64,000 bases of DNA, taken from the NCBI GenBank assembly GCA_964647465.1, contig CAZYFS010000001.1:28690-92689 (forward strand), read 5' to 3'. The translations under genes were made by a program, and so were the position numbers. Below, in pieces: positions 20,298 to 62,114 of this stretch. Origin of the DNA: an uncultured Candidatus Saccharibacteria bacterium (GTDB taxonomy: Bacteria; Patescibacteriota; Minisyncoccia; Minisyncoccales; UBA1441). Position 1 is the first letter of the stretch. Every line of letters begins with the position of its first letter. The notes beneath the pieces were generated by a model. The model did not search any database. It saw nothing but the letters and a program-made list of their open reading frames with translations, and had not been told where the DNA came from.

Positions 20298-20605
20298 AGA
20301 TTCTAATCAAAACAGTTCAGGCTAAGGTGTTAGTTCCTTATAAAACTACTAACAAACAAAATCTGTTGATTCTGTTGCAGGCCTCGAGCCTGCCCTTGCT
20401 TACGCTTAATCTTTAAGCGTTCGCGTTCTCGCCGCCGATTCCCGATAAGCGGAACGAGGACTTATATTTCGGGAAATCAGTTCTTTAAGACGATAAATGC
20501 TTTTGCTTGATTCTTTGATTTATCGTTCTTACTTAATCAAGCTAAGTCTGTAAAAGTTGTTTTGCATTAATTTCTAGACGTGGGTTCAATTCCCGCCATC
20601 TCCAC
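20277..20605 (+). ncRNA. ssrA: tmRNA (ssrA)
   Basis: It lies immediately downstream of smpB. The 5' end GGGGATGAAGGGCTTCGAT matches the tmRNA 5' consensus (GGGGcUGauucUGGaUUCGAC). The 5' GGGGATG pairs with the 3' CATCTCC (7 bp, one G-U) to form a tRNA-like acceptor stem. T-arm: GTGGG-TTCAATT-CCCGC. Discriminator A follows, and CCA is not fully encoded. Candidate tag ORF at 20377-20409: GCA GGC CTC GAG CCT GCC CTT GCT TAC GCT TAA, giving (A)GLEPALAYA. Confidence 0.8.
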
Positions 20606-20654
20606 TAGTAAATTTATTTATTTATTTATAAAAAAAATAACGGAGGAAAATCAA

Positions 20655-38967: not shown

Positions 38968-39001
38968 TAATAAAACAAAAAATGGCTCAATTATTACAAA
39001 A

Positions 39002-41399: not shown

Positions 41400-42127
41400 A
41401 TGGAGGTTTCTTGTTCCGATCACTTCTTCTTTTGCTGTTTTTCCTTTTTCTCCCTCTCGAAACAAAAGCAAGCCTTACTCCTTTTATTATTGAAGTTCAA
41501 ATTAGAGGAGCTCAAGTTGACGAAGACTACGTTAAAATTTATAATCCGCTTGATCGGGAAATTAACGTTAGTCGTTATCAGCTCAAAAAGAAGAGTTCAA
41601 CAGGAAAAGAATATTCTCTCAGAATTTTCCCTTCTTCAACCATCATTCCTCCTAAAGGAGAAATTATTTGGGCAAATTCAAACAATGGATATGCTCAATC
41701 GCTCTCCGTTCAAGTAAAAAGCACGGCTAATTTATCAATAAATAATAGTATCGCTTTTTTTGATAAAAATGGTAAAATAATTAATGCCTTGGGTTGGGGA
41801 GAGGGAATAAGTCAATTTTTCGAAGGATCTCTCTATCCCTTCAATCCTCAGGCGCAGCAGCAGTTAAGGAGGAAGCAAAATCAAGGAAATTTTCAAAACA
41901 CTGATTCTAATGCGGAAGATTTCTACCTTTTCCCAGTTGAGATAAAATTGATTGATGTTCTTGAAGAAAAAAACCAGCTCGACAATTCTTTCCTAGAGGA
42001 CAATTCTGTTTTGGGCCCTCAAACACCCAAAAGTTTTCCGCGAAAATTAAGTGTTTTTGTAGCCGGATTAAGTTTCTCTTTTGTTTTTAGTTTTATTGTT
42101 ATTGTTTTAAAAGAAAAATTATCATGA
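41396..42127 (+). CDS. lamin-tail-domain (LTD)-like secreted protein with C-terminal TM anchor
   Basis: N-terminal signal, FIIEVQIRGAQVDEDYVKIYNP...VSRYQL...FP...IIPPKGEIIWA (LTD signature), and a C-terminal hydrophobic anchor. ATGA overlap with the ATPase gene. Confidence 0.6.
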   Translation: MNGGFLFRSLLLLLFFLFLPLETKASLTPFIIEVQIRGAQVDEDYVKIYNPLDREINVSRYQLKKKSSTGKEYSLRIFPSSTIIPPKGEIIWANSNNGYAQSLSVQVKSTANLSINNSIAFFDKNGKIINALGWGEGISQFFEGSLYPFNPQAQQQLRRKQNQGNFQNTDSNAEDFYLFPVEIKLIDVLEEKNQLDNSFLEDNSVLGPQTPKSFPRKLSVFVAGLSFSFVFSFIVIVLKEKLS

Positions 42128-47699: not shown

Positions 47700-47933
47700 A
47701 ATAATAATATAGATTAATTATTTAAAAAGAATTATTGTTATTAGGAAGATGGAATAAGTTAATAAGTAATACTTTTCTCTGATTTTTTAAGGATTAGAAG
47801 TGTTTTTAAGGATGGATATGCTGTGGATAAATTCTTCAAAAGATAGGGACTAATATTCTTGGTTTTTTTTGAGGTTAAAGTTTTAAACAACTTACTCACT
47901 TTTCTTACTCAGATTTTCCTCAACTTATCCAGA
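47700..47933. promoter_or_regulatory. candidate oriC segment (dnaA-dnaN intergenic) with DnaA boxes and an AT-rich tract
   Basis: Perfect DnaA box TGTGGATAA at 47822-47830. Near-box TTATCCAGA at 47925-47933. An AT-rich run at 47700-47745 is a possible DUE. Confidence 0.45.
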
Positions 47934-49304
47934 GTAAATTCTTTCTCTGATAAGATGAATCTCTTCTGCGATTCGTTGGTCTTGTTCAATGGCAGAAGAT
48001 ATTTTTTGACAAGCATACATAGCTGTTGTATGGTCACGTCCTCCGAAGGTTTCTCCAATACTAGGGTAAGATTTTCGTAATTCTTCTCTTAATAAATACA
48101 TGGCTACTTGTCTTGGTTGAGCGATATCCCTTCTTCGGCTAGAAGAAAAAATTTGCTTAATATCAAGACTATAAAACCTCGAAACAGATTCAATTATTTT
48201 TTTAACAGTCGTTGTTTTTGTTGGGGATTGAACTAAATCACGAAGGAGAATTTTTATTTTTTTAATATCAGGTAATTCTCCGTATAACTTCTGAAAAGCG
48301 CAGAGACGATTTACAGCCCCTTCTAATTCACGAACGTTGTTTTGAACATTAAAGGCGATATATTCCAGAACATCTTGATCGGGACATACACCACTTTCTT
48401 GAATTTTCGATTCTAAAACAGCAAGTCGACTTTCGTATTCTGGGCGACTTATATCAGCGATCATTCCTCCTTCGAATCGAGATTGTAATCTTTTTTCCAA
48501 AGTGGGAATAGCGCTAGGCAAACGATCAGAAGAAAGAACGATTTGTTTATTTTTTTGGTAAAGAGCGTTAAAAAGATGGAAAAATTCTTCTTGGGTTTTT
48601 TCTTTTCCTGACAAAAATTGAACGTCGTCAACAATTAAAACGTCAAGATTTTGTAATTCAGATTTTAATTTTTCAATTGATTTTCCTCTAATAGAAGCAA
48701 CGATTCGCGAAACAAATTTTCCAGTAGAAGTATATTCTATTTTACTAGATTTATTCTTTTCCTTGATATTATTACCAATAGCCTGAAGGAGATGTGTCTT
48801 TCCGAGACCGACCCCTCCGTATATAAACAAGGGATTATAAGCGTGTCCAGGATCTTCTGAAACTGCCCAAGCAGCAGCATGAGCTAATTCATTAAAAGGG
48901 GCGGTTACGTATTGTTGGAAAGTATAGCGAGGATTGAGGCCAGTATTTTGATTTGTCCGCAATTGTTCAAAAGAGGATTGACTATTTCTTGTTATTTGGG
49001 GAGCTAAAGAAGCCTCAACTTCTTCTTCTTCTAGGTGAACGATAGTATAATGTATTTTTTTAATAGTGGAGTCTAATTCCTGGAGAATTTTTAAAATAGA
49101 AGAATGGTATCTTTTGCTTAACCACTCTTTCGAAAAATTATTAGGGACAGAAATAGAAACTTCTTGATCGGTTTTCTCGATAATTTTTGTATTCTTAAAC
49201 CAAGTCGCGAAGTTTGCTGGAGAAACTTTAAATTGTAGTTGGGCTAAGACAGATTGCCACAATTCTTCCTTAGTCATATTTTTTATTGTAGCATAAAATT
49301 GCAA
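47925..49304 (-). CDS. dnaA: chromosomal replication initiator DnaA
   Basis: AAA+ Walker A GGVGLGKTHLLQAIGN, Walker B LIVDDVQF, and C-terminal domain IV (GGRDHTT...). Confidence 0.95.
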   Translation of the reverse strand: MQFYATIKNMTKEELWQSVLAQLQFKVSPANFATWFKNTKIIEKTDQEVSISVPNNFSKEWLSKRYHSSILKILQELDSTIKKIHYTIVHLEEEEVEASLAPQITRNSQSSFEQLRTNQNTGLNPRYTFQQYVTAPFNELAHAAAWAVSEDPGHAYNPLFIYGGVGLGKTHLLQAIGNNIKEKNKSSKIEYTSTGKFVSRIVASIRGKSIEKLKSELQNLDVLIVDDVQFLSGKEKTQEEFFHLFNALYQKNKQIVLSSDRLPSAIPTLEKRLQSRFEGGMIADISRPEYESRLAVLESKIQESGVCPDQDVLEYIAFNVQNNVRELEGAVNRLCAFQKLYGELPDIKKIKILLRDLVQSPTKTTTVKKIIESVSRFYSLDIKQIFSSSRRRDIAQPRQVAMYLLREELRKSYPSIGETFGGRDHTTAMYACQKISSAIEQDQRIAEEIHLIRERIYSG

Positions 49305-49435
49305 GCTTTCCCAAAACTCCCCACAACATCAACAAAAACGAAATTTTGTTAATAACCTGTGTATAAACTGAGCAATACAAACAGATTGACCAAAGGTGGC
49401 TTGGTTGTTATTCTAATAGAAAATCTTTTTGTCTT
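49305..49435. promoter_or_regulatory. dnaA upstream region / alternative oriC candidate at the strand-switch point
   Basis: DnaA-box variant TGTGTATAA at 49374-49382. It sits at the divergent junction between the minus-strand dnaA-dnaN and the plus-strand rnpA-yidC-jag. Confidence 0.35.
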
Positions 49436-49774
49436 ATGTTATCTCGACTCAACCGTTTAACTCGAAATAAAGATTTTCAACGAATTTACGATCATGGGCA
49501 AACTTGCCGTGGCCCTTATTTAATGATCAAGGTTTTAAAAAATGAGTTATCGATTAATCGCCTCGGAATAGTGGTTAGTAAAAAGATTTCTAAAAAGGCA
49601 GTTACTCGTAACAAAATTAAACGTTGGATAAGATACCTATTTAGTCAGGAGCTTTTTCAATTAAGGCCAGGATATGATATCATGGTGATTACTTATCCGA
49701 AAATTAGAAACCAAGAATACAAAACAATCAAAGAGAACCTAATGGAAGTTTTTAAAAAAGCTAAATTATTGTAA
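49436..49774 (+). CDS. rnpA: RNase P protein component
   Basis: MLSRLNRLTRNKDFQRIYDHGQ...RNKIKRWIR. RnpA signature. Confidence 0.85.
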   Translation: MLSRLNRLTRNKDFQRIYDHGQTCRGPYLMIKVLKNELSINRLGIVVSKKISKKAVTRNKIKRWIRYLFSQELFQLRPGYDIMVITYPKIRNQEYKTIKENLMEVFKKAKLL

Positions 49775-49778
49775 AGTT

Positions 49779-50495
49779 ATGTCGATTATTTCTATTTTTA
49801 ATTTATTCTTGTATCAGCCTTCTTTTAATTTGTTAATCTTGCTGTACGTTTATATTCCTGGACACGATTTAGGGGTGGCGGTCATCGTTCTCACAATATT
49901 GGTGCGTCTACTCTTTTATCCTCTTTCTGTTAAATCAATTAAAACCCAAGAGGCAATGAATAAAATACAGCCTCGCTTAAAAGAAGTAAAAGAGAAGTTT
50001 AAGAATGACGTCCAGAAGCAATCAGCAGAGATGATGGCGCTTTATAAAAAACACAACATTAGTCCTTGGTCTAATTTTCTTTTGATGCTTATCCAGATCC
50101 CGGTCATAATCGCTTTGTTTCAAGTCTTTTCTCGTGGTTTTGGTCCAGAGATTCTACAACCAAATCTTTATTCCTTTATTGCCATGCCAGATTTATCTTC
50201 TCCGACTTTATTCGGAATTCTTAATTTGACCCAATCAAACATGGTGGTGGCTGTTTTAGCCGGAGTGACTCAGTTTTTCCAGACAAAAATGATTACACCC
50301 TCTTCTAAAAAAGAGAAGGGAGAATCAAAGAAAGCAACGGGAGCAGGAATGCAAAAGTCTATGCTTTATTTTTTCCCTCTTTTTACCATTTATATTCTTT
50401 CGCGCTTAAATTCAGCCGTTGGTCTATACTGGCTAACTAGCAATCTTTTTGCTCTAGTTCAGCAATACTATTTACTTAAGCGCAAACATGATTAA
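49779..50495 (+). CDS. yidC: membrane protein insertase YidC (short form)
   Basis: 238 aa. YidC/Oxa1 core (LVRLLFYPLS, QPRLKEVKEK, ...NPLGGCLP-like region). Confidence 0.8.
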   Translation: MSIISIFNLFLYQPSFNLLILLYVYIPGHDLGVAVIVLTILVRLLFYPLSVKSIKTQEAMNKIQPRLKEVKEKFKNDVQKQSAEMMALYKKHNISPWSNFLLMLIQIPVIIALFQVFSRGFGPEILQPNLYSFIAMPDLSSPTLFGILNLTQSNMVVAVLAGVTQFFQTKMITPSSKKEKGESKKATGAGMQKSMLYFFPLFTIYILSRLNSAVGLYWLTSNLFALVQQYYLLKRKHD

Positions 50496-50949
50496 AGGAA
50501 AAGAATTGAAATTAGTTCAAGAAATTGTCCAGAATTTTTTCCAACAAATGCTGCTTGAATGTTCGGCGAAGGTTAAAGGCTCTTCTCCGGGGACAATCAA
50601 TATCGAAATAGAAGTTGAGGAAGCACCAATATTAATTGGAATAAATGGAGAAACGCTTTTGAGCATTCAAAGTTTATTGAAGAAAATTCTAACAAAAAGA
50701 CTAGATCGGTTAATTTTTGTGGATTTTGATATTAACGGTTATAAAAAAACAAAATCAAAGCAACTTAAAGACTCGGCGGCAACTACTGCCGATCAGGTTG
50801 CTTTGACTGGAGTGAAAGAAGTTCTTCCTTCAATGTTTTCCTGGGAGAGGAGAATTGTTCATCTTGCTCTTATCGAGCGAAAAGATGTTTACACGGAAAG
50901 CGAAGGACAAGGAAAGGAGAGAAGAGTAATTATCAAACCGACCTCCTAA
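50488..50949 (+). CDS. jag: Jag/KhpB RNA-binding protein (KH + R3H)
   Basis: 153 aa. Conserved position after yidC and an R3H-like C-terminus (RRIVHLAL). Confidence 0.7.
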   Translation: MIKGKELKLVQEIVQNFFQQMLLECSAKVKGSSPGTINIEIEVEEAPILIGINGETLLSIQSLLKKILTKRLDRLIFVDFDINGYKKTKSKQLKDSAATTADQVALTGVKEVLPSMFSWERRIVHLALIERKDVYTESEGQGKERRVIIKPTS

Positions 50950-50952
50950 ACT

Positions 50953-52446
50953 CTATTGAGATATACCCTGTTCGACGACAGGGATAATAGAAATACGTCC
51001 TACTTTTGGGCGAAAAGCTTCAGTTCCTCGCAAGATGGAACTGCTTTTTAAATCAGTGGTGCTATCCCTAAAAACCTGACAATCAGCACCAGCGTTTTCC
51101 TCATTATTATAGAGAGTGTCGTTACTCAATACCACCCAATAGCTTCCATCGACTTTGACGGAATAAATTCGTTCAAGGCCATTCCACGGATAATTAATCT
51201 CTTCTTCCCAGAAGTATTCGTGTCCATTTTGAATTTCGGCAGCAGAAATAGTGTGGCAACCAGCTCCGCTAACGTCGGTTGCGAAATCAAGGTTTTGGCA
51301 AAAAGTAACCCCACCTTTTAATTCTTTGCTGAACTGACGGGCAAAAACTTCAACACTGCGAATGCGACTCGGTTCAATATCTAGATCATCTAAGGCAGTG
51401 CATTTAGGAAGGATAGTGTAATTAATGTTTTCTGCGAGATTGTGGGTGTCTACTTCCCTTCCTTCGTGAACAATACCACATTGGCCCTCTCCTCCAGTCT
51501 TGGTATGAAAGACTCCTCCCCAATAAATATCAGGAGAATAATAATCAAGAGTGTCATTGTCATGACTAGATATCCAACCCTCAGCATTATTATAAGTAAA
51601 GCGAAAGCGGAGGGATTCAGTGTGATCATTGAAAAGCCCTAAGTCGCTGCTTCCTATTCCAATTGGCAAAGGAAGATTATTTGGATAATCTTCAAAATTT
51701 ATTCGGCAACCTCCGCCAAATATTCCTGCTGATGGGAATAACACTAATCCGGAAATTAAATCGTCGAAGTAGATAGATTTGGGGTTAGAAAAGAGTTCTT
51801 GGCGAGTATTTCCGCTCGCATCAACGAAATTATTTTCTATCGTTGTAAACGCTCCTCCGGCATAGTTATATTCAGGGAAAAGAAAAATAGCGCTTAATTC
51901 TTCTTTGGGGCTTTCGATTTCAACGAAGTCTATCTCGAAATCGGCTGGTAAAATAATTTCGGGAGTACTCTCTCTGATACAAAAGAGATCTTGTTTGCCC
52001 GTGTCGACATCTGGCTTGCTATATAAGCAAATGCCGTGAGCGGGAATAAGAGGTTCGTCGGTTATTCCTACAAGGCTCGGATTAATCGTGTGAACGACTA
52101 GATAAGACCCTAAAACGATCACAATCCCGAAAAGCCCGCCGTAAATTTTAGTTCGAGCGTTTTTCATTTTTGTTACCGAGCCAGCGGAAATCAAGTAAGA
52201 AATTCCTCCGTAAACAAGAATAACAAAAGCAATTATTCCAACGCTCTCGATAGCGAAATAAAATAAATAACTAAGATAAGCAGAGCCGTCAGCATCTGTT
52301 GAGGGAGCAGCTTGGCCACCAGGGAGAGTCGGATAATGAATCTCCAGTTCTCGAGCGAAAAGAGAGTCTGTTTTAATAGTAAAAAAAGTTCCGATTAAAA
52401 CAAGGCAAATAAAAACGATAAAAAGATATTTTGAGAAAGTTTTCAT
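50953..52446 (-). CDS. secreted/anchored protein with VirB2/TrbC-pilin-like two-helix N-terminal module (paralog of 52468..54921)
   Basis: 497 aa. Signal/TM, then IIAFVILVYGGISYLISAGSVTKMKNARTKIYGGLFGIVIVLGSYLVVHTINPSLVG, alignable with the N-terminus of the next ORF. A large C-terminal domain of unknown function follows. Confidence 0.5.
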   Translation of the reverse strand: MKTFSKYLFIVFICLVLIGTFFTIKTDSLFARELEIHYPTLPGGQAAPSTDADGSAYLSYLFYFAIESVGIIAFVILVYGGISYLISAGSVTKMKNARTKIYGGLFGIVIVLGSYLVVHTINPSLVGITDEPLIPAHGICLYSKPDVDTGKQDLFCIRESTPEIILPADFEIDFVEIESPKEELSAIFLFPEYNYAGGAFTTIENNFVDASGNTRQELFSNPKSIYFDDLISGLVLFPSAGIFGGGCRINFEDYPNNLPLPIGIGSSDLGLFNDHTESLRFRFTYNNAEGWISSHDNDTLDYYSPDIYWGGVFHTKTGGEGQCGIVHEGREVDTHNLAENINYTILPKCTALDDLDIEPSRIRSVEVFARQFSKELKGGVTFCQNLDFATDVSGAGCHTISAAEIQNGHEYFWEEEINYPWNGLERIYSVKVDGSYWVVLSNDTLYNNEENAGADCQVFRDSTTDLKSSSILRGTEAFRPKVGRISIIPVVEQGISQ

Positions 52447-52467
52447 TTTTAATAAATTAATTTTGAT

Positions 52468-54921
52468 TTAATTTTCCTCTTCTCCTGCCTCTGCGCAGAA
52501 GTAATTCAGCATCAGGTCTTTAACGGCTTCTTGACAGATTAGACCGTCTTGATTTTCCGAGCAAGCTTTCTTTTCGTCTTCTGATAAAGCATTGTTCCCA
52601 TAAGGGGAATCGCTATTATAGGGATAGCAATTTTTGAAATCGGGGAAGATAGTAATTCGAGAAGTGGATAGCTTATCAAGCAAAATCGAACAACTAAATA
52701 AGTCTTTAGTGGTTGCGTTTTCTCCGAACCCAGTAATGCAAGTTTCTAGCTTTTGGCGAACGTTCATTAGTTGATTGATTAACTCTGTCCTGCTTGGATC
52801 ATCTTCTTTCAAATTCTTAGCTTCAATTAAATCAATTAGATGATCAGTTCTCTTTTTAACTGATCTCTCTTCTTCTTCGAACCACTGGTTAACCTCAGCG
52901 CTTCTCCTAAAAATTATGCTTAATGGACAAGGATGCATCTCCATACTGGGGGCATTACAAGTACTACACGGACAACCAGGACAAGCACCACAATCATTAC
53001 ATCGACAACCATGAGTAGTGTAACAACCCCCACGCTTGCAATGAGTGGCAGCAGAGTCTTGGGTTGTTATCGTTCCAGAATTACATAGACAGCGAGGGGG
53101 TAAATTATAGAGAGTGCATTGATTCCCGGGATCTTTCTTGTCATAAACCGGACAAGCTTCTTCGGGGACAGAGGTTTCGACTAGGGTAGTTAGTTCAGGA
53201 ATGAGTTTTTCAATATAGGCTTCGGCGTCATCAATTAACTCGCCGATTGAAGCAGTCCCAACAGGAAAACCATCTTCTATTTCGGTGTCAACAACGCCTT
53301 CTGTAATATTTTGGCGGGCAGTGATTTTCTCTGCTCGTTCAGAAAAAGGTTTCGGGCAATAAAAAGTAAAAGCGTCTTGATCAAAGACATAACATTCTCG
53401 TTCTTCTCCTTGATTTTCGTTAGTTTCTGGTTCAACTCGGCAAATGATCCCTTCTTCGTCAGATGGCATTCTTTCGTCTTTCCCTTGCTCGTTATTTATG
53501 AGGTATTTTGAACATTTATAACTCGTCTGGGTTTGATTGTTCCACCATTGTTCAACTTCAGTCCCCTTTTCCAGTTTATCAAGATCACAATCTCCACACG
53601 AGATTTTCTCCCCATCTTCTTCGCAATCTTTGCAGTTAAAATCTCGACAATACTTTGTGATATCAAGTTGTTGTTCTTGATCACATTCTTCTCCCCATTG
53701 ATGTGGTTGATCGTTAAGGCAGAAGACAAATTGTTTCGTCCTTTCTTTGGTAATTTCTTTGATGTCGTAAAAAGCGGAATGGCTTATTATTGTTTGATAT
53801 TGACAATCGCTTTTATAAAGGCCCTCTGCTTTTTCAAGATAAGATAAATCTACCTCGAGGCTGGATTTATAGGCTGGAAGAAAATGATAAGCGAGGTATC
53901 TTAATTTATTAACAGTAGTTAGTTGAGAATAATCTTCCGTAGAAACGTGGACTAATTCACTATCTTCTAAGCAGTTGTGTCCACCAATAACTTGCTTCAT
54001 GTTTAGAACCTTTTCTCGAATTTGATTCATTTCTCCGCGACCTGGACAAGGATCTCCCGAGCAAACAGCTCCACAGCGACAACTTCCTGCGGGGGGACAG
54101 GGACAGCCACCACAACTACAATACCCACAAGCACATTGCTGGGATAAGTCCGCTAATCTTTTTGATTTGTCGCGAAGTTCTTTTCCTTTAATTTGGATCG
54201 CTTCGCTAATTCTCTTGAGACAGTCTAGGCGATCATTTCGAGTGATTGGCTGTGCTTCATTGAGAAAGTCTCCTTCATCATCAAAGGCGTAACATAGATA
54301 GGCAATTTCAGCGTCTTCGGCTATAGCGTTGGGCCATTGTTCCGGAAAATCAACTTTCATTTTTTCGGCAATTCTTTCCAATTCCCCTAGGGGAATTGGT
54401 GGAGAGAGATTAAACTGGTCGTAACGGCAGTCAGCTAGTTCACCAGAATCATCAAAACAACTAATGTTCTTAGCTAAAATTCGTTCTTCTAACAACATTC
54501 CAAAGGGAATCTCTTGAAAACCAAAAACAGTTTCTTCGGAAGGAGGGGGAGGGCTTGGTTCTTCTATAGTTCCTGGAGGAAGTTCATTAAGGATCGGTTG
54601 GAGTAGCTGAGGGTTTATTGTTTGGAGAATGAGATAAGAAAAAACGACAATCATTAATCCAGCTATTCCACCAATTATTTGTTTTTGAGCAGAACTCTTT
54701 GCCGCAACAGAACTGGTCGAAAAAAGATATTTTATCCCACCATAAATCAAAACCGCGAGAGAGATAATCCCGATTGATCTGATGCTGTAATCAAAAACGG
54801 TTCCGATTAGATTAGAAAAATCTTCTTCGGCAGCAAAAACGGAGGAAGGAAAAGAAATCAAGCAAAAAATATTTATCAAAAAAAAGAAGGCAATGCTTTT
54901 TTTAATTATCTTGGTAGTCAT
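52468..54921 (-). CDS. large cysteine-rich secreted protein with VirB2/TrbC-pilin-like N-terminal module
   Basis: 817 aa. Signal peptide, then IISLAVLIYGGIKYLFSTSSVAAKSSAQKQIIGGIAGLMIVVFSYLILQTINPQLL, followed by a poly-Pro linker. Two dense Cys clusters: CACGYCSCGGCPCPPAGSCRCGAVCSGDPCPG and CKRGGCYTTHGCRCNDCGACPGCPCSTCN. Confidence 0.5.
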   Translation of the reverse strand: MTTKIIKKSIAFFFLINIFCLISFPSSVFAAEEDFSNLIGTVFDYSIRSIGIISLAVLIYGGIKYLFSTSSVAAKSSAQKQIIGGIAGLMIVVFSYLILQTINPQLLQPILNELPPGTIEEPSPPPPSEETVFGFQEIPFGMLLEERILAKNISCFDDSGELADCRYDQFNLSPPIPLGELERIAEKMKVDFPEQWPNAIAEDAEIAYLCYAFDDEGDFLNEAQPITRNDRLDCLKRISEAIQIKGKELRDKSKRLADLSQQCACGYCSCGGCPCPPAGSCRCGAVCSGDPCPGRGEMNQIREKVLNMKQVIGGHNCLEDSELVHVSTEDYSQLTTVNKLRYLAYHFLPAYKSSLEVDLSYLEKAEGLYKSDCQYQTIISHSAFYDIKEITKERTKQFVFCLNDQPHQWGEECDQEQQLDITKYCRDFNCKDCEEDGEKISCGDCDLDKLEKGTEVEQWWNNQTQTSYKCSKYLINNEQGKDERMPSDEEGIICRVEPETNENQGEERECYVFDQDAFTFYCPKPFSERAEKITARQNITEGVVDTEIEDGFPVGTASIGELIDDAEAYIEKLIPELTTLVETSVPEEACPVYDKKDPGNQCTLYNLPPRCLCNSGTITTQDSAATHCKRGGCYTTHGCRCNDCGACPGCPCSTCNAPSMEMHPCPLSIIFRRSAEVNQWFEEEERSVKKRTDHLIDLIEAKNLKEDDPSRTELINQLMNVRQKLETCITGFGENATTKDLFSCSILLDKLSTSRITIFPDFKNCYPYNSDSPYGNNALSEDEKKACSENQDGLICQEAVKDLMLNYFCAEAGEEEN

Positions 54922-54936
54922 TTTTTTAAAATTACC

Positions 54937-55284
54937 TTAATTATCATTCTTGATTGTTAAATAAACTGTCACGATCCAAGATGCGGCAATATCTCCGAAG
55001 ATGGGAATCGATTCGACCAAGGTAGGAAGAACGCTTCGTTTTAGTAATCTTTTTAATATTTTCGCTGATTTTCCTTTTATTTGACCAGAACGCATTAAAG
55101 TCCAAATACCAAAAATAATTAAGCCGGCGATATCAAGAATCACGGAAAGAACCAAGCCGATCGGCGCCAAGACAATAGTTATGGACAGGATAAGGCAGAT
55201 AACTCCTCCTAAATCAAGAAGTCCGGCAATAAAAAACATTAAAACAGCAATGGGGGATAAAAAACTAGGAGAATTATCTTCCAT
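54937..55284 (-). CDS. small 3-TM membrane protein (T4SS-locus component, possible pilin/VirB2-like)
   Basis: 115 aa, with two long and one short hydrophobic helices. It sits between the VirB4 and the Cys-rich protein genes. Confidence 0.4.
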   Translation of the reverse strand: MEDNSPSFLSPIAVLMFFIAGLLDLGGVICLILSITIVLAPIGLVLSVILDIAGLIIFGIWTLMRSGQIKGKSAKILKRLLKRSVLPTLVESIPIFGDIAASWIVTVYLTIKNDN

Positions 55285-55287
55285 AAT

Positions 55288-57081
55288 TTAAATTTCTTTT
55301 TTGATCATTCGTTTGGCTTCTTGAATCTTGGCAACCTCGGATGGATTAGTAGTGATAATTTGATCTTCGGCATAGGAAGCAACTACTTGCATTGCTACTC
55401 TTTTTGTCCCCGCAAAGAAAATTCCTTCTCCGACTTGAGTTGAGAGAAGAAGTTCTTTCTCTCTGTTTGTCAGCCCAAAAGTTTCTTGAATTAATCCAAT
55501 CGAAGCAGAGGACTGCTTCATTAGTAATTGAAGGGAAGAATTGTTAATAATTGGTTTCCCGTAACGTGAACCCATGAAGTCACTAACGTCCTGCGTAATG
55601 GTTGTTAGGCCGAGCCAATATTTTCGGGCTCTTTTAGCCATGCCGAAAAGAAAAGAGGCGCCATCTTCTGTTTTCATAATCCACCAAGCTTCGTCAATAA
55701 CAATAACCCTTTTCTTTAATGTTCCGCGAACGGAACTCCAAATGTGATGAAGGATAATATACATGGCAATTGGTCTCAAGTCATCGCTCATGTTTTTAAT
55801 GCCGAAAACGATTAATTTATTGTTCATATCGACATTAGTGGGTTGATTGAAAAAATTAGCATAACTCCCTCGAGTGTATTTACGTACTCTGCGCAACAAA
55901 GACTGAGCTCCATCCATGCTTTCAAGCACTTCTTCGAAATCTTGCATTAAAGGAGGTTTAAGTCGAGAGAAGTCTGTTCGTGAGGTAATATCGCAAGCAG
56001 CGTAAGTGGCCGTAAGGGCTTGATCAATAATTGCATCTTCTTCAGGGGTTAAGCCCCCCAACATTGTTCGAAAGAGTCCTACTAGATCAATGACGTTACG
56101 CCGAATAACATTGGCAGGATCTTCATCGGCCGTTGGTTGCGGCAAATCGAAGGCATTAAGGTGATTGGGAGAAGAAAGAGAAATATGGAAATAAGATCCA
56201 TCAACGGCGTCGGAAAGATATTTGTATTCATTTTCTGGGTCAATAACCATGACATCCACCCCTTCCATCAATTGGCGTAGAATTTCTAGCTTAGCGAAAT
56301 AACTTTTGCCTCCTCCACTTTTTCCAAAAATAACCTCATTGGCATTTTCTAAAGAGAAGCGGTCGAAAAGAATAAGCGAATTATTGTGCCTATTGATGCC
56401 AAAGAGAATTCCTTTATTGGAACTCAAGTCGAAAGAGATAAAAGGAAACATGCTCGAAAGAGGAGAGGTGTTCATTAAGGTGTGAACTTGTAATTGGTCG
56501 AGGCCATAAGGTGAACAACTAGTAAATCCTTCTATTTGCTGGAAAGAGGCTGGTTTAAGGTAAATCAGGCGCGACTCAAGAATAGCTCGGACATCTGTTT
56601 CTACATCCCTTAATTCATCAGTTGAAGCGCCATAAAGATTGAGATAAATTCCAACCCGAAACATTCTTTCTTGAGCATTTTTTAAGCTGGATCGAAGTGA
56701 TTCGACATCTTGGTAGGCTGTTTCTAATCCGGGATCACGGACAAAGCCCTTGCCTTCTCGGTCAATCATTTCAGCTTGAACTTCGGCAGATTTTTTTCTT
56801 AATTTCTTTAAAATAGAAGTGGTTTCAACTGGATGGAGAAAGAAGGTAAGATCAAGAGGCGAAGTTAGATTAATAATAGGCGATAGCCATCCAACTGATA
56901 AATAACGAGGATAAGAAAAAACAAAAAAAGTTTTTAATTGTTGTTTTTCAATTTCGACGTGATCTTTTTGTATCTTAACGGAAGAAGGAGCAATGAGGTC
57001 ACGGCTAGTTACTGCTTTGCTAACGGGAATCGTATTTCCTCCCAGGGAGGAAAATAGGTTTTTAAGTAAAGTTGATTTCAT
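55288..57081 (-). CDS. VirB4/TraC/TrbE-family T4SS ATPase, C-terminal (ATPase) portion
   Basis: Walker A FGKSGGGKSYFAK, Walker B VIVIDEAWW, and the TITQDVSDF motif. It overlaps the upstream ORF as ATGA. Confidence 0.85.
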   Translation of the reverse strand: MKSTLLKNLFSSLGGNTIPVSKAVTSRDLIAPSSVKIQKDHVEIEKQQLKTFFVFSYPRYLSVGWLSPIINLTSPLDLTFFLHPVETTSILKKLRKKSAEVQAEMIDREGKGFVRDPGLETAYQDVESLRSSLKNAQERMFRVGIYLNLYGASTDELRDVETDVRAILESRLIYLKPASFQQIEGFTSCSPYGLDQLQVHTLMNTSPLSSMFPFISFDLSSNKGILFGINRHNNSLILFDRFSLENANEVIFGKSGGGKSYFAKLEILRQLMEGVDVMVIDPENEYKYLSDAVDGSYFHISLSSPNHLNAFDLPQPTADEDPANVIRRNVIDLVGLFRTMLGGLTPEEDAIIDQALTATYAACDITSRTDFSRLKPPLMQDFEEVLESMDGAQSLLRRVRKYTRGSYANFFNQPTNVDMNNKLIVFGIKNMSDDLRPIAMYIILHHIWSSVRGTLKKRVIVIDEAWWIMKTEDGASFLFGMAKRARKYWLGLTTITQDVSDFMGSRYGKPIINNSSLQLLMKQSSASIGLIQETFGLTNREKELLLSTQVGEGIFFAGTKRVAMQVVASYAEDQIITTNPSEVAKIQEAKRMIKKEI

Positions 57082-57734
57082 TTAACGTCTTCTGTTAATT
57101 CTGGCATAATAGAGGGATAATATCCTACTTCGGCTGAATGTGGATGATACCAAGCCCAAAGCAACTCAATTAATTCGGGGGTTGTTAGCGGGGATGAGTT
57201 TAATCCACATCGCCTTAAGCCAATAGAAATAAACTCCATTCTTTGCCTTAACTGAGTCCTTGCTCTTTCGAAGGCTGATTCAGGAATTAATTCTTCTTGT
57301 TTTTTGGAAGCCAATAGTCTCTTGAATGAACTTGATCCCTCTACCTCAATTAGAGTGTAAGGAACAATCACTAAAAACCTTTTACTCATGATGGTTCCCC
57401 GATTAATAATTTTAGCAACAAAGCGTCTATAGTCAGCAGTTTGAATGCGCAATAGTTCGTTAGTTTGATTTTCTTCCAAGGTTTTCACTTTTTCGAGGTA
57501 GCCAGTTAAGTTCACTCGGCGAGATTGAACGGAAATCTGAGTATCGAAATCAAGAGAATTGATAAAATTTTGGAATTGAAAAATGATAGCCTCTTGTTCA
57601 TCGTTTGATTTAAGGGCAAAGTTCGAAGAAGAGAGCATGAGAATTCCTCGCAAAGCTTTGTTTTTTAAAATAATAACGCCATCTTTAATCTCCTGGAAAG
57701 GAAGGAATTCTTGTGTTGTTGCCTTATCGCCCAT
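57078..57734 (-). CDS. VirB4-family N-terminal domain (split from the ATPase portion)
   Basis: LPFQEIKDGVIILKNKALRGILMLSSSNFALKSNDEQEAIIFQFQNFINSL matches the conserved VirB4/TcpF/PrgJ N-terminal region. Confidence 0.7.
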   Translation of the reverse strand: MGDKATTQEFLPFQEIKDGVIILKNKALRGILMLSSSNFALKSNDEQEAIIFQFQNFINSLDFDTQISVQSRRVNLTGYLEKVKTLEENQTNELLRIQTADYRRFVAKIINRGTIMSKRFLVIVPYTLIEVEGSSSFKRLLASKKQEELIPESAFERARTQLRQRMEFISIGLRRCGLNSSPLTTPELIELLWAWYHPHSAEVGYYPSIMPELTEDVK

Positions 57735-58146
57735 GTTTTTTTAAATCTAATTTATTTTTGAGACGAGACAACTGACTCAACGGAGCAATAGCCAAGACAT
57801 CTCTTTGTTTTTTTCCTTGAATTTCGGGAGGTTCTTTTTTAGAAACTACGGGAATGGGTAGGGTCATCTCTTTCCTTTTCCATAAGTAAATTTTGGGTCC
57901 AAGAATATATTTAAAAATACTCTCTATAAAAACAGACAAAGGACGACTATTCGGACGGAGAAAGGCTAAGCTTGTAGTAATAATAGCGACAATGGCAATT
58001 GCTACCCAAAAAGCTGAACTAGGAAGAAAAAAGTAGAGAACAAAAAGCAACAAAGCCCCTCCTCCCAGGAAGAGTAATTGTTTAAACCGTAGGGGACCAA
58101 CAATCTTTGGTTCTCTCTCAATAAATTTTGGGACTAGGTATTGCAT
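57724..58146 (-). CDS. VirB3/PrgI/TcpE-like small 2-TM T4SS protein
   Basis: 140 aa. Short N-terminus, then two adjacent TM helices (LLFLGGGALLLFVLYFFL / FWVAIAIVAIITTSLAFL). It lies directly upstream of VirB4, as in Gram-positive-type T4SS operons. Confidence 0.55.
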   Translation of the reverse strand: MQYLVPKFIEREPKIVGPLRFKQLLFLGGGALLLFVLYFFLPSSAFWVAIAIVAIITTSLAFLRPNSRPLSVFIESIFKYILGPKIYLWKRKEMTLPIPVVSKKEPPEIQGKKQRDVLAIAPLSQLSRLKNKLDLKKHGR

Positions 58147-58490
58147 TAATTCAGGGGTTCTTGATACTTATCAACAACGGAAGGAGTTTTTTCTGAGGAA
58201 AGAGGCGCAAAAATAAAAGCATTAATTTCCTTTTTGAAACTTTCAGCTAGGGCAGGTTCGATGGTCAGCTCTTTTTGAAGGACAAGAGGCAAATCAGAAA
58301 GAGAAAAAAGATTTAATAATAAATTTCCAACTATCTCTGGTAACTTTTGTTCCTGGATAGAGTCTAGTTTGTAGCGAGAAGAAAGATCGCGAATAATCTT
58401 AGCTGTTTCTTCAGAGAAAATAGCTTTCTGTTGACCCAGAGGGATATTTTTGTAAAGCTGCCAAAATTCATCTTCGCTTATTTCTCGCAT
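58146..58490 (-). CDS. hypothetical cytoplasmic acidic protein (114 aa), first gene of the VirB3-VirB4 sub-operon
   Basis: No TM and no motif. Its stop overlaps the VirB3-like start. Confidence 0.35.
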   Translation of the reverse strand: MREISEDEFWQLYKNIPLGQQKAIFSEETAKIIRDLSSRYKLDSIQEQKLPEIVGNLLLNLFSLSDLPLVLQKELTIEPALAESFKKEINAFIFAPLSSEKTPSVVDKYQEPLN

Positions 58491-58567
58491 AACAATTTCT
58501 TTTAATTACCTCATTTTACTATTTTTTAACAGAGACTACAAGAAGCCAGAATAAAGAGGTTGCTTCC

Positions 58568-58598
58568 TTGACAAATTCTTTAACTGTATTATTATTTA
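58568..58598 (+). promoter_or_regulatory. putative sigma70-type promoter for the SPFH gene
   Basis: Perfect -35 TTGACA at 58568-58573. Weak -10 candidates 17-19 nt downstream (ATTATT at 58591-58596, TATTTA at 58593-58598). Strong RBS AAGAGGAGGAAGC-ATG. Confidence 0.3.
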
Positions 58599-58639
58599 AA
58601 TACGTTCTCTAAAACTAAAAACAAAAAAGAGGAGGAAGC

Positions 58640-59773
58640 ATGAAATCCAAAAGGTTAAGATCTCCAGGATGGTTGATTTTGTGGTTAGTCCCAACAGTTC
58701 TTTCGTGTTGGTTCTGGCTTTGGTGGGTCGGGGTTATTTATGCCCTGGTGATGATTTTCCCAGTTATTTTTTGGGGTCTTGCCGAGGACAACATTTGCTT
58801 CACCTTCATCTCCGAAGGAACAGCGAAGATTGTTACTCGTAGTGGAGCATTTCGCAAGGTTTTACTGCAATGGGAGGGCCGCGAATTAGACGGAAACGGC
58901 TATGTTGGGTTGATCGAAAAACCGGAGGAAGGCGCTTTATTGCAGAAGAAAAAATCTTTCAGTCAATGGCTTGAGCGACTGTTTGGAGGTCTTCGCTTTT
59001 ACGGTCTTTGGCCGTTGGCAGACATGCTCGTTTATGAGATGCAATGGTGGGGAGTAGACGGCAAAGGAGAGATAGATTTTCACGAGAAGGAACTTCTAGA
59101 TTTTGTCTTAGTTCGCCCCGACTTGTATTGGGGAGAAGTGACAGAAGCAGAAGACAAGAATTTACTCCCTCTGAGGGTGGAGTTTGTTATCACTCTTCAG
59201 ATTGTATGTCCTCGCAAGGCACTTCTTGATATCCAAAACTATCTTGAGGCGGTGATAGAAAGACTGAAGCCGGCAATCAGGGATAAGGTTACGAGCTCTT
59301 CTTACCAAGAGTTAATAGTGGATCCCACGGATGTTGCAAAGGCTATCTACGATGGAATTTCTGATCTTCGCGACGAGTTTATTCGGGATTATGGTGTTAA
59401 GTTAATCTCTTTTGACATCAAGAATATTGATCCTCCGAAAGGTTACATAGAGCAAACAATGGTTGCTTATCTGGCCGAACAAGAGGCGAAGAAGATAGAA
59501 AGGCTTGCCGAGGCGAGGGCTCTAGAAATTAACCTCATCAACAAGGCCGTTCAGGATTATGGAGATCTCGGTCTGGCCATCAGAACTCTCGAAGCTCTTG
59601 AGAAGTCTCCTTTGGCCGCCAGCATGATCGTCCAAAAAGTTCCTGGACTAGAGGCGGCCCTTAAATCCCTTGGAGGATCTAAGGGAGAAGTTTCTGAGAA
59701 GGAGCTAGGGACCCTTCTTAAAGAGCTAAAGATCGCTCTCCAAGAAATACAGGAGGGCAAAAAGGAGGAGTAG
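58640..59773 (+). CDS. SPFH/band-7 (stomatin/flotillin/HflK-like) membrane protein, GC-atypical
   Basis: N-terminal Trp-rich TM. EGTAKIVTRSGAF, ...DFVLVRPD..., DYGVKLISFDIKNIDPPKGYIEQTMVAYLAEQEAKKIERLAEA, and an Ala/Glu coiled coil. Visibly higher GC and different codon choice (GAG, CTG, GCC, CGC) than the flanks. Confidence 0.75.
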   Translation: MKSKRLRSPGWLILWLVPTVLSCWFWLWWVGVIYALVMIFPVIFWGLAEDNICFTFISEGTAKIVTRSGAFRKVLLQWEGRELDGNGYVGLIEKPEEGALLQKKKSFSQWLERLFGGLRFYGLWPLADMLVYEMQWWGVDGKGEIDFHEKELLDFVLVRPDLYWGEVTEAEDKNLLPLRVEFVITLQIVCPRKALLDIQNYLEAVIERLKPAIRDKVTSSSYQELIVDPTDVAKAIYDGISDLRDEFIRDYGVKLISFDIKNIDPPKGYIEQTMVAYLAEQEAKKIERLAEARALEINLINKAVQDYGDLGLAIRTLEALEKSPLAASMIVQKVPGLEAALKSLGGSKGEVSEKELGTLLKELKIALQEIQEGKKEE

Positions 59774-59784
59774 AAAACAACGAA

Positions 59785-59822
59785 GGGAGGAACAAGTACA
59801 TTTTGTTCCTCCCGGATTTTTT
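59785..59822. terminator. bidirectional intrinsic terminator (SPFH / VirB6-like convergent ends)
   Basis: GGGAGGAACAA-gtacatt-TTGTTCCTCCC (11-bp perfect stem), then GGATTTTTT. Confidence 0.7.
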
Positions 59823-59843
59823 ATTTATAGGGGATATTTAAGC

Positions 59844-62114
59844 TTATAATCTATTTCTTCCCCTCGTTCCGGATCTTATTTTCTTCCTTTGCCGATTCAA
59901 CTGCTTTTTTAGTTTTGCTTGCCCGCGAACTTTTTCTCTTTTTTGTTTTGCAAGAGAAGGACCAGATTGAATAAAACCACCTTTTTCGCGAGCTCGATCT
60001 TGCATTCCTTTAGATAAAACCAACCCATTAACAATTTTTCCCACTTTTTTAAGAGATTCATCGAGAGATTTTTGAATCTCTACGGCGCTTTTGCCATCGC
60101 GAAGACCAATTCCTGATCTTGCAGCAGCCGTACTTTGTCGATAAAAGGCTAAAGATGAGTTTCTTGGCCGACCGGTATTTTTATTAATATCGGTGTAGAA
60201 ATCAGTTGTTTTTGGCGGGGCTGCTTGAATGGCATTACTAAATTTGTGACCCATTGTTTCAGCTGCTTTCGCCCATTGGTTTCCTCCCCAGAATTCATGG
60301 ATGGCGCTTTGGACACTAGAGGAGGCGATGGAAGAGCTTAATCTTTTGATTGCATCTGTATCGCCAGCCTTATCAACAATTCGATCAGTGTAACTATTGT
60401 AACCCTTTCCTGCTCGATCTTCTGCTTGTTGTTCCTTGGTGTAAGCTCCTGTTTCCTGAGCTATTCGCCCGAACATTTCTCCTAATTCTCCAGCGTAAAG
60501 TTCCTCTAGGGCCTTAGCTGTTTCTTTGGCGGTTTTATTGCCTTTAGCTTGTATGGCGGTTCGATATAATTTTTCTACGCCGACGTCATCAAGAGAAGAG
60601 TTTTTCTTAAATTGCTCAAAGTTTCCATCTTTAATTTCAGAGGCAACGATAGCTAATTGAGCCATTGGATTTATTGCCGAATTAAATCGAGAAACATTTT
60701 CATTGGTTGTTTTCCCTTTAGCTTTTTCCATGGCTACCTGAAGCGCTTTTCCGCGAGAAGTTGTTGTCATGGAGCTAACAGTTCTTCCGGTTAATCGTTT
60801 GGCATAACCACCGAAACCCTTTCCTTCTTCCATAGACATTTTTTCAATTGCTTCTTCTCCTCTTGCAACCCCAGATCTAGTGAAGACTCCTCGGGCTCCC
60901 CCCATAATAGCGTGACCAGTGCCAGCCCCAAATCCTGCATCGCCGGATTTTCTTAATTGTCGTCCTTCTGCGGCTCCTTGTTTAATCCCGACAATTGCTC
61001 CGGTGGTTCGTCGTACTGTTCCTACTCCTCCAGCCTTAAGTCCTTTCTTTAGCACTCCCTTCCCTCTATTGCCGATTGCCTTTGCTCTGCTTACAACAAG
61101 ATTGCTTCCGGTAGCGCTTACTTGCAGGGTAAAAAGAAAGCCAGCTATTAGGAAAATCATAGGAACGCTATATTGAGCAACGGTTGTCATAAAATTTGAT
61201 CCCGCTGTATTGTTTAGAACCATATTCGTTGTGGGTCGACTTACAGTTTCCTCAATTAATTTGTCGCTTAAGTAAATAACAAGAGCGGCAGGAATGCCGA
61301 TAATACTCCAGTTAATAAACTCCTTCCACCATCTTTGAAAATGTTTTTGACCAAAAGGAAAGATCCAAAGGAGGAAAGCAAGGGGCGAAATAATAATAAG
61401 CAACCAAAGAATGACATAACGCATCGCAAAGAGAAAAGCGAAAATCAAATAAATAAACATTGCGACAAAATTAAAAACGACAAGCAATAACCCTTTTGCT
61501 AAAGCAATCGCCGGATCAGCAGTAAGTCCTCCGCCTGTCAAAGTTGCAAACTGGCTTGCTATTTCTCCCCCCATTCCCGAGAGGAGAGTCGTGGTTTCTG
61601 GTAAAAAGATCCTGGTAACAACATTTGCTCCATCAATAATAATTCCACAAAGAGCAGGAGTGAAATTTATTAAAAGAGCGACAACAATAATTCGAAAAAG
61701 GGCCTGTTTTGTTTTAAAATTAGCTAGACTTAAAGCGGTTGCTAATCCTATATAGACTAAGCCAAGTATAATAAAGGACATCGAAAAATTCCTCATCATC
61801 GTCCATCCTTCTTGGACAATGAAGTTGTCAGGTCCGGTAAAACTTACTCCAATAAAAGAATCACTGATAACCCATTGAAAGATTTGTTGGGCGAATTCCA
61901 TAAAAGGAGCAGTTAGAGCAGTTAGGACAGCAAAAACAACCATTACTATTGCGTTGGAGAAAATATTCATAGCTCCACTTACTATCCCGAAAAGATCCCA
62001 AGAAAAGTTTGCTTCAGCCGAGAGAGGAAGAATTAAAATAAACAAAGAGAAGACAAAAACAAGACTAGTGAATAGTTTTCTTTTTTTGAAAAAACCTAGT
62101 AAAGAAAAATTCAT
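59844..62114 (-). CDS. VirB6/TrbL-like polytopic membrane protein with ~350-aa Gly/Ala/Lys-rich C-terminal extension
   Basis: 756 aa. Signal/TM plus about 6-7 TM helices with conserved Trp (FQRWWKEFINW). The C-terminal half is hydrophilic with G/A/K/R-rich low complexity and a highly basic tail KQKREKVRGQAKLKKQLNRQRKKIRSGTRGRNRL. Confidence 0.55.
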   Translation of the reverse strand: MNFSLLGFFKKRKLFTSLVFVFSLFILILPLSAEANFSWDLFGIVSGAMNIFSNAIVMVVFAVLTALTAPFMEFAQQIFQWVISDSFIGVSFTGPDNFIVQEGWTMMRNFSMSFIILGLVYIGLATALSLANFKTKQALFRIIVVALLINFTPALCGIIIDGANVVTRIFLPETTTLLSGMGGEIASQFATLTGGGLTADPAIALAKGLLLVVFNFVAMFIYLIFAFLFAMRYVILWLLIIISPLAFLLWIFPFGQKHFQRWWKEFINWSIIGIPAALVIYLSDKLIEETVSRPTTNMVLNNTAGSNFMTTVAQYSVPMIFLIAGFLFTLQVSATGSNLVVSRAKAIGNRGKGVLKKGLKAGGVGTVRRTTGAIVGIKQGAAEGRQLRKSGDAGFGAGTGHAIMGGARGVFTRSGVARGEEAIEKMSMEEGKGFGGYAKRLTGRTVSSMTTTSRGKALQVAMEKAKGKTTNENVSRFNSAINPMAQLAIVASEIKDGNFEQFKKNSSLDDVGVEKLYRTAIQAKGNKTAKETAKALEELYAGELGEMFGRIAQETGAYTKEQQAEDRAGKGYNSYTDRIVDKAGDTDAIKRLSSSIASSSVQSAIHEFWGGNQWAKAAETMGHKFSNAIQAAPPKTTDFYTDINKNTGRPRNSSLAFYRQSTAAARSGIGLRDGKSAVEIQKSLDESLKKVGKIVNGLVLSKGMQDRAREKGGFIQSGPSLAKQKREKVRGQAKLKKQLNRQRKKIRSGTRGRNRL

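Follow-up and report, generated by a model that had tools for sequence, protein, structure and literature searches.

We analysed a stretch of 64,000 nucleotides from an uncultured Candidatus Saccharibacteria bacterium (GenBank assembly GCA_964647465.1, contig CAZYFS010000001.1, positions 28,690 to 92,689 of the forward strand), referred to below as the window. An intact open reading frame (ORF) at 52468..54921 on the minus strand encodes a protein of 817 amino acids in which a VirB2-like pilin module is joined to a large cysteine-rich ectodomain of novel fold. The combination is new, and it occurs within a known type IV secretion system (T4SS) of Patescibacteria. Our preferred reading, held with moderate confidence, is that the protein is a disulfide-stapled, conserved extracellular component of this T4SS, probably a tip, cap or stalk analogous to VirB5 in function. 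It contains 48 cysteines (5.9%), 47 of them in the ectodomain. The original prediction, made from the sequence of the window without database searches, had called this density extraordinary, and the comparison with the other ORFs bears it out. The 46 ORFs of at least 150 codons in the window, this one included, average 0.95% cysteine, and the runner-up reaches 2.1%; under a binomial model, at least 48 cysteines in a protein of 817 residues have a probability of 8e-23.

The two dense cysteine clusters lie where they had been placed originally, according to the coordinates of the ORF translation. The motifs CGDCDLD (residue 442) and CRDFNCKDCEEDGEKISCGDCD (residue 425) are both present, and the proposed polyproline linker PSPPPPSEE occupies residues 122-130, at 54532-54558. 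Two further motifs ascribed to the protein, CERCGT and CPLCSG, are absent from it and are encoded by the ORF at 3137-5551 on the minus strand. This ORF specifies an 804-residue class-I tRNA synthetase, whose CERC and CPLC motifs are probably zinc knuckles. The parts of the cysteine-rich protein are the following:

52468..54921, minus strand: whole gene of the cysteine-rich pilin-fusion protein (ORF list, cysteine count and a 100%-identical protein on 8 public contigs).
54832..54921, minus strand: signal peptide, residues 1-30 (hydrophobic at residues 4-32, model helix 2-29; cleavage probably after VFA).
54586..54819, minus strand: VirB2-type pilin module, residues 35-112, two transmembrane helices and a short lysine-containing loop (PF18895, model helices, hydropathy).
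54526..54585, minus strand: proline-rich flexible linker, residues 113-132, including PSPPPPSEE (predicted local distance difference test score, pLDDT, below 50 at residues 113-123; variable and proline-rich in all orthologs).
54232..54525, minus strand: conserved 'neck', residues 133-230, with the motif QEIPFGxLLExRILAKNISC and C155, C165 and C210 (E137, P139, G141, E145, C155 and C165 invariant).
54040..54135, minus strand: dense cysteine cluster 1, CACGYCSCGGCPCPPAGSCRCGAVCSGDPCPG, residues 263-294, 10 cysteines in 30 residues, between helices 231-261 and 295-306 and ending in GDPCP.
53287..53805, minus strand: beta-rich middle domain, residues 373-545, 12 cysteines (373, 401, 413, 425, 430, 433, 442, 445, 470, 494, 510, 522), pLDDT ~87-96 in the full-length model.
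52924..53154, minus strand: dense cysteine cluster 2 region, residues 590-666, 14 cysteines (590, 602, 611, 613, 628, 633, 639, 641, 644, 647, 650, 652, 655, 665), between helices 559-589 and 667-683 and ending in HPCP.
52471..52923, minus strand: C-terminal helical and small alpha/beta domain, residues 667-817, with putative disulfides 728-809, 744-765 and 787-796 (pLDDT ~88-98; cysteine co-presence).

A homology search of 5.8 billion proteins recovered identical copies of the protein followed by homologs ranging from 86% down to 26% identity. In an alignment of 16 homologs, 30 cysteines are present in at least 15 of the 16 sequences, and 44 of the 47 ectodomain cysteines in at least 13. Mean column conservation is 90% for cysteines versus 54% for the other columns. 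Poor conservation is confined to C20 in the signal peptide and C317, which is found in 5 of the 16 homologs. We rejected the possibility that the clusters are a low-complexity or repeat artefact missing from orthologs: the gene contains no tandem repeat at the DNA level, the cysteines are kept down to 26% identity, and orthologs retain the clusters.

A profile search of 1.84 billion cluster representatives matched 161 of them at E<=1e-30 and about 10,000 at E<=1e-10, the latter mostly through the pilin module. At least 20 cysteines are found in 107 of the best 150 representatives, with a median cysteine content of 4.5% and a maximum of 87 cysteines in 1223 residues. The original description of the protein as highly unusual is therefore overstated for the lineage. 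The parts most broadly common to the family are the pilin module, the neck motif QEIPxGxLxExILAKNISC and an element consisting of a helix, cluster 1 and GDPCP; profile positions 1 to ~157 are matched in most family representatives, in keeping with a conserved neck. At least six cysteines align to cluster 1 in 105 of 172 family sequences, and to cluster 2 in 74 of 172. Across the wider family the positions of the clusters are constant, and their length and cysteine pattern highly variable. Two orthologs (P0012 and P0013, from loci L011 and L012) carry a quasi-repeat insert of 45-70 residues rich in C, D, P and E (CEPEEPCDPNDPD...) in cluster 1 (alignment columns ~408-475), which brings them to 59-61 cysteines. 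Cysteine-rich proteins of this type are a large, so far undescribed family of the candidate phyla radiation (CPR). Our literature searches returned no account of cysteine-rich or large pilin fusions; two papers on the T4SS (PMC10633639, PMC12102498) and a 2025 review (PMC12857230) deal with small pilins only and do not mention such fusions.

The N-terminal region has the features of a VirB2-type pilin. The PF18895 (T4SS_pilin) match in the cysteine-rich protein covers residues 50-101 with E = 0.0023 and 18.4 bits, below the gathering cut-off of 26.6 bits; the same family is matched at E<=0.01 by 34 of 47 aligned family members, with a best E of 2.5e-9. The protein has three hydrophobic segments only, all N-terminal (residues 4-32, 49-68 and 80-108), and AlphaFold2 models the helices of the pilin module at 35-67 and 72-102. 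The lysine-bearing loop STSSVAAKSSAQKQ joins the two hydrophobic helices, and the flanks are acidic. The signal peptide would be of the Sec type rather than the Tat type. Pilins of the VirB2/TraA type have both ends outside and the loop inside; since this topology puts both ends outside, everything after residue 110 should be extracytoplasmic. The signal peptide and the two-helix anchor with its lysine loop and acidic flanks agree with the earlier placement of the ectodomain on the outer side of a pilin-like anchor, and the predicted topology does not put the clusters in the cytoplasm. The protein has a pilin module, yet is not a typical pilin. It possesses a signal peptide and two hydrophobic helices with a short basic loop, as pilins do, and departs from the small size (~70-190 residues when mature) that permits helical polymerisation, having 817 residues and an ectodomain of ~700.

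We modelled the full-length protein with AlphaFold2 using an alignment of 47 sequences. The model is a confident single body (mean pLDDT 81.7, predicted template modelling score 0.78), in which the acidic ectodomain of ~700 residues comprises a long helical bundle, the beta-rich domain and the small C-terminal alpha/beta domain. The long helices span residues 231-261, 336-372, 559-589, 667-700 and 711-728. Besides the linker, the only stretches of low confidence are within the dense clusters (residues 271-285 and 615-664, pLDDT <50). Each dense cluster connects two consecutive long helices, so that it forms a loop where a helical hairpin turns. In cluster 1, 8 of the 10 cysteines are present in at least 15 of the 16 homologs. 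Cluster 2 proper, CKRGGCYTTHGCRCNDCGACPGCPCSTCN, comprises residues 628-656 (52954-53040), with 7 cysteines in its 17-residue core CRCNDCGACPGCPCSTC; the HPCP motif follows at residues 663-666 (52924-52935). A related (G/H)xPCP ending and the helix after it close both clusters (hhalign probability 90%, 17 columns). The likeness is suggestive of an internal duplication of the two cluster hairpins, of which the short PCP and helix endings alone align. When the beta-rich domain (residues 373-556) was modelled by itself, the pLDDT was 57, too poor for a fold search. The domain is thus not an autonomous module.

No family was found for the ectodomain in Pfam (E<=0.01) or NCBIfam. The family profile matched nothing below E 0.5 among PDB sequences, and a Foldseek search with the model gave no hit at E<3 for the PDB and none at E<0.9 for BFVD.

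The gene had been described originally as linked to a T4SS, and this is corroborated by its position inside a T4SS operon with VirB4, PrgI, TrsD-like and TrbL_3 genes, the synteny of which extends to at least 10 loci. The neighbouring genes in the window are:

54937..55284, minus strand: 115-residue polytopic membrane protein, between VirB4 and the cysteine-rich gene in L005-L014 and L016-L019 as well; no Pfam or NCBIfam family.
55288..57081, minus strand: VirB4-type ATPase, 597 residues (PF19044 P-loop_TraG, E 3.9e-33).
57078..57734, minus strand: TrsD/VirB4-N-terminal-like protein, 218 residues (NCBIfam TrsD and VirB4 N-terminal; PF26593 TraC-like).
57724..58146, minus strand: PrgI/VirB3-like protein, 140 residues (PF12666, E 2.2e-8).
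59844..62114, minus strand: VirB6/TrbL-like polytopic protein, 756 residues (PF19590 TrbL_3, precomputed match).
50953..52446, minus strand: downstream pilin-fusion paralog, 497 residues, 9 cysteines (BLASTP 39% identity over residues 30-125 only; syntenic in all loci).

The gene order across loci is KsgA, VirB6/TrbL-like, in some cases Band_7, a 114-residue protein, PrgI/VirB3, TrsD-like, VirB4, the 115-residue membrane protein, the cysteine-rich protein, one to three pilin-fusion paralogs, jag-yidC-rnpA and dnaA. From the VirB6-like gene to the paralogs this order is fully kept in L006, L007, L009 and L011-L013 and mostly in L017; the shorter loci L005, L008, L010, L014, L016 and L018 retain the core of VirB4, the 115-residue protein and the cysteine-rich gene. 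The 115-residue protein, so far uncharacterised, probably belongs to the T4SS. Wherever a locus covers this region, the first pilin-fusion gene behind VirB4 and the 115-residue protein is the cysteine-rich gene, with 34-62 cysteines in full-length copies. This gene is single-copy and has a fixed position in every locus. The 497-residue paralog has nothing but the pilin module in common with the cysteine-rich protein; its ectodomain is unrelated and belongs to no family. More distant loci have two or three such paralogs, and the downstream paralogs carry 5-18 cysteines. A Band_7/SPFH gene (58640-59773, plus strand) lies on the opposite strand within the cluster; it is found at this place only in the window, L006, L007 and L018, and is absent from L009-L013. 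All related loci come from metagenome-assembled genomes of Patescibacteria labelled Saccharibacteria, Parcubacteria or 'Patescibacteria group', except for one 'bacterium', one 'uncultured bacterium' and one Atribacteria, the last of which is probably a case of mis-binning.

The T4SS cluster (47925-62114) abuts jag-yidC-rnpA and dnaA-dnaN in the replication origin region, with dnaA at 47925-49304. Family scans of all window ORFs of at least 100 residues detected neither a relaxase nor VirD4. The locus thus has the VirB4, TrsD, PrgI/VirB3, VirB6-like and VirB2-like genes, the closeness to dnaA and the lack of a nearby relaxase that characterise the chromosomal T4SS of Patescibacteria, a monoderm-type (MPF-FATA-like) system with arrays of VirB2-like pilins reported in 2025 (PMC12102498). 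Its counterpart in Southlakia epibionticum is essential for epibiotic growth (PMC10633639). The cysteine-rich protein shares with the VirB2-like pilins of Patescibacteria (PF18895; SEML1_0014-0019 of S. epibionticum; PMC10633639, PMC12102498) a signal peptide and a two-helix hydrophobic hairpin. As with the Southlakia pilins, the genes form tandem arrays in a monoderm-type cluster (VirB4, PrgI/VirB3, TrsD, VirB6-like) beside dnaA, with no relaxase or VirD4. The Southlakia pilins, however, have 100-185 residues and no large ectodomain, whereas here the pilin module makes up the first ~110 of 817 residues and the rest is cysteine-rich. A direct link to the essential Southlakia pilins was rejected: those are small, and the gene after virB4 in that organism encodes a peptidase-domain protein with no homology.

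That the protein is bulky, single-copy, slow to evolve and always placed right after virB4 suggests a role at the tip, cap or stalk of the pilus. Identity to orthologs in other loci is 37-50% for the cysteine-rich protein, compared with 35-49% for YidC, Jag and KsgA, 63-75% for VirB4 and 25-43% for the downstream paralog; the protein evolves more slowly than the downstream paralog and the VirB6-like protein. Like the VirB5/TraC tip or stalk proteins of Gram-negative T4SSs, it is extracellular, consists of a helical bundle with a globular appendage and is encoded immediately downstream of virB4. As with VirB5/TraC, it would presumably associate with the pilus as a minor subunit that does not polymerise (PMC12857230), in the sense that it works like these proteins and not that it is a member of their family. 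More speculatively, the pilin anchor might let VirB4 extract the protein from the membrane and dock it onto the VirB2-like pilus, where it could act as a tip, cap or stalk subunit functionally analogous to VirB5. It is unlikely to be the major pilin that polymerises, or a host-specificity factor of the rapidly diversifying kind.

The rate of evolution also bears on the function that had been proposed originally, that of a pilin-anchored adhesin or host-recognition determinant whose cysteine-stabilised loops bind the host bacterium. A large acidic extracellular domain on a flexible linker would suit such a protein, and the cluster loops are indel hot spots. Saccharibacteria cannot grow as epibionts without their T4SS and pilin arrays, and variation among paralogs of the arrays has been suggested to help in adapting to hosts (PMC10633639, PMC12102498). 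The cysteine-rich protein, however, evolves at a housekeeping pace, behind both the adjacent paralog and the VirB6-like protein, keeps a single copy at a fixed position in every locus, and has no lectin, Ig or adhesin domain detectable by sequence or fold. We therefore consider an adhesin quite unlikely, and propose the faster-evolving downstream paralogs as better candidates for host-specific adhesins. A resemblance to surface proteins of a parasite may be pointed out. The variant-specific surface proteins of Giardia are CxxC-rich, membrane-anchored, hypervariable antigens. Like them, the cysteine-rich protein is membrane-anchored, extracellular and rich in CxxC and CxC, on the surface of a parasite or epibiont where protease resistance is useful; unlike them, it is slowly evolving and single-copy, and it is unrelated to them in sequence and lineage.

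The original prediction left the choice between metal binding and disulfide bonding open. The disulfide part is favoured by the way in which cysteines are lost, and the metal part is without a family match. We counted the co-presence of cysteines in the alignment of 172 family sequences, and the following pairs stand out:

C728/C809: both present in 58 sequences, neither in 7, a single one in 0; lost in two separate lineages.
C744/C765: both present in 60 sequences, neither in 5, a single one in 1; lost in at least three lineages.
C373/C522: both present in 29 sequences, neither in 8, a single one in 3.
C401/C413: both present in 24 sequences, neither in 8, a single one in 2.

For neighbouring cysteines that are not partners, such as 728/744 and 765/809, joint loss was never seen. 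Among the closer homologs, three further pairs are lost jointly. C442 and C510 are so lost in P0003 and P0005 only. C611 and C665, the first and last cysteines of the cluster 2 loop, are jointly lost in P0031 and P0077. In P0014, C270 of cluster 1 is lost together with C590, located just after helix 559-589, while C602 stays. Cysteines that vanish in pairs favour disulfides over metal clusters, because sites with four ligands are not expected to lose them in this way. The co-loss of 611/665 and of 270/590 suggests that a disulfide closes the loop of cluster 2 and that the two cluster regions are in contact. Both hairpin turns would then lie at the same end of a simple up-down bundle.

According to our preferred reading, nearly all ectodomain cysteines would form intramolecular disulfides, ~23 in total. 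The 46 conserved ones allow for up to 23, and the odd 47th is C317. The dense clusters (residues 263-292 and 590-665) would be variable-length loops inserted where helical hairpins turn, held shut by disulfide staples such as C611-C665. They may be bridged to each other via C270-C590, and together could cap the bundle with a rigid structure that withstands proteases and shear. For oxidative folding the cell would rely on MdbA-like/VKOR machinery of the kind common in CPR genomes, for which enrichment of an MdbA-like thiol-disulfide oxidoreductase and of VKOR has been reported (PMC6744442). In terms of folding, a parallel is offered by the pilins of Gram-positive bacteria that are folded by MdbA/VKOR (Actinomyces FimA, Corynebacterium): the envelope is of the monoderm type, export is by Sec, and folding of those pilins depends on disulfides. 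They are nonetheless sortase-assembled, Ig-like proteins with one to few disulfides, whereas the cysteine-rich protein is T4SS-linked and helical with ~23 candidate disulfides. The number of ectodomain cysteines is even in 68 (61%) versus odd in 44 of 112 family members (p = 0.03), a weak signal.

Several observations weigh against a disulfide-stapled T4SS tip. The 39% of family members with odd ectodomain counts include this protein (47), so that not every cysteine can sit in an intramolecular disulfide. Precisely the two dense clusters are the parts that AlphaFold fails to place, and pairing within the clusters lacks clean covariation owing to the ambiguous alignment of these stretches. The location of both clusters at one end of the bundle is read from the order of the helices and one co-loss event. 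No DsbA, MdbA or VKOR was found in any substantial ORF of the 64-kb window or among the genes called in the 10 kb beyond its left end, ~74 kb altogether. Just past that end lie genes for pyruvate:ferredoxin oxidoreductase subunits (L020, 11859-14344), from which the organism looks fermentative or anaerobic. As to the role, the protein has no sequence or fold match to VirB5, and a place at the tip or cap is deduced solely from gene order, size and anchor. Nor can essentiality be transferred to it, because cultivated Saccharibacteria with an essential T4SS have small pilins only.

Some of these observations would also fit dense clusters that are metal-thiolate sites for Zn, Cu or Fe, of a metallothionein-like or multi-zinc-knuckle kind, making up a metal-binding or redox-active cap, with disulfides formed by the scattered cysteines alone. 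CxC and CxxC alternate at a metallothionein-like density (10 cysteines in 30 residues and 7 in 17), and AlphaFold, confident elsewhere, fails to fold either cluster, as would be the case if folding required a cofactor. The odd counts in 44 of 112 ectodomains, the anaerobic-type metabolism and the lack of Dsb or VKOR in ~74 kb point the same way, as do the histidines of HGC, within cluster 2, and of HPCP, at its end, which are kept in close orthologs. These histidines, however, are not conserved in the wider family. Moreover, the length of the clusters varies from ~30 to >100 residues, their cysteine number is variable, and they accept insertions rich in C, D, P and E, unlike fixed metal sites; the boundary cysteines 611/665 and 270/590 act as pairs; and the protein is Sec-exported unfolded and located outside the cell. 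The metallothionein- or knottin-like spacing noted originally did not translate into a match: metallothionein, knottin/EGF, Fe-S, zinc-ribbon and other metal-site families are unmatched even at a Pfam E<=10. At that threshold cluster 1 has no match at all, and cluster 2 has a chance match to stn_TNFRSF12A (E 1.3). We consider metal-thiolate sites unlikely overall, while giving them some weight.

Particular metal centres were rejected on the basis of motif spacing. A multiheme or c-type heme site would need CxxCH, which is absent, none of the seven CxxC motifs preceding a histidine. For a 4Fe-4S ferredoxin site there is no Fer4 match, and cluster 2 reads C-ND-C-GA-C-PG-C-P-C, the final spacing of which differs from CxxCxxCxxxCP. 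Metallothioneins resemble the clusters in their local cysteine density of 30-40% and in the alternation of CxC and CxxC. They are, however, small and cytosolic, whereas the clusters are variable-length loops with aromatic residues and disulfide-type border pairs in a large exported protein.

The exposed clusters might instead form intermolecular disulfide cross-links to like subunits, paralogs or envelope proteins, producing a sheath, a pilus or an attachment plaque; the cysteine-rich envelope proteins of Chlamydia, which are cross-linked by disulfides, would be a parallel in principle. We give this a slender chance. Odd cysteine numbers are frequent and apply to the 47 cysteines of this ectodomain, the clusters are in poorly ordered and probably surface-exposed loops at hairpin turns, the downstream paralogs also have their 5-18 cysteines, and pilin anchors imply entry into a polymer. 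On the other hand, the non-conserved C317 (5 of 16 homologs) explains the odd count here, the best-resolved cysteines covary as intramolecular pairs, and a 700-residue domain on each subunit would be hard to fit into a tight VirB2-type filament.

A bolder possibility combines the two clusters, with 22-24 cysteines at one end of the bundle, into a shared extracellular metal-thiolate or redox-active cap, which would serve in docking of the epibiont or in electron or metal exchange with the host envelope. This we regard as very unlikely, and we know of no T4SS component with a metal-thiolate or redox contact role.

Elsewhere in the window, the minus-strand ORF at 14682-18209 encodes a class-I (Ile-type) tRNA synthetase of 1175 residues in which an entire histidine-phosphatase domain (PF00300 His_Phos_1, E 6.8e-32), inserted at residues 495-659, separates the two halves of the synthetase catalytic domain. 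A tmRNA gene (20277-20607, plus strand, 97.5 bits) overlaps the 3' end of smpB (19758-20297) by ~20 bases. At 40083-42127 on the plus strand there is a T2SSE/PilB-type ATPase (E 7.7e-113), preceded by a 404-residue ORF without a family and followed by a 243-residue Lamin-Tail-Domain protein; the ATPase and its flanking ORFs are probably part of a type IV pilus apparatus. The ORFs at 12260-13912 (minus strand, 550 residues), 36721-37572 (minus strand, 283 residues) and 38861-40075 (plus strand, 404 residues) have no Pfam match at E<=1e-4.

Few machines have been shown to be indispensable to cultivated Patescibacteria living as epibionts, and the T4SS with its VirB2-like pilins is one of them. 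With its large outward-facing domain, its exceptional predicted disulfide load and a fold without known relatives, the conserved cysteine-rich family offers a tangible candidate for that part of the system which lies furthest out and faces the host in many uncultivated lineages. Its existence implies that extensive oxidative folding takes place outside the cytoplasm of tiny, mostly anaerobic and quinone-poor cells, unless these use extracellular metal-thiolate chemistry instead. The new domain family, defined by the pilin module, the neck motif and cysteine-capped hairpins ending in (G/H)xPCP, could be used for annotation and for locating T4SS loci in CPR metagenomes.

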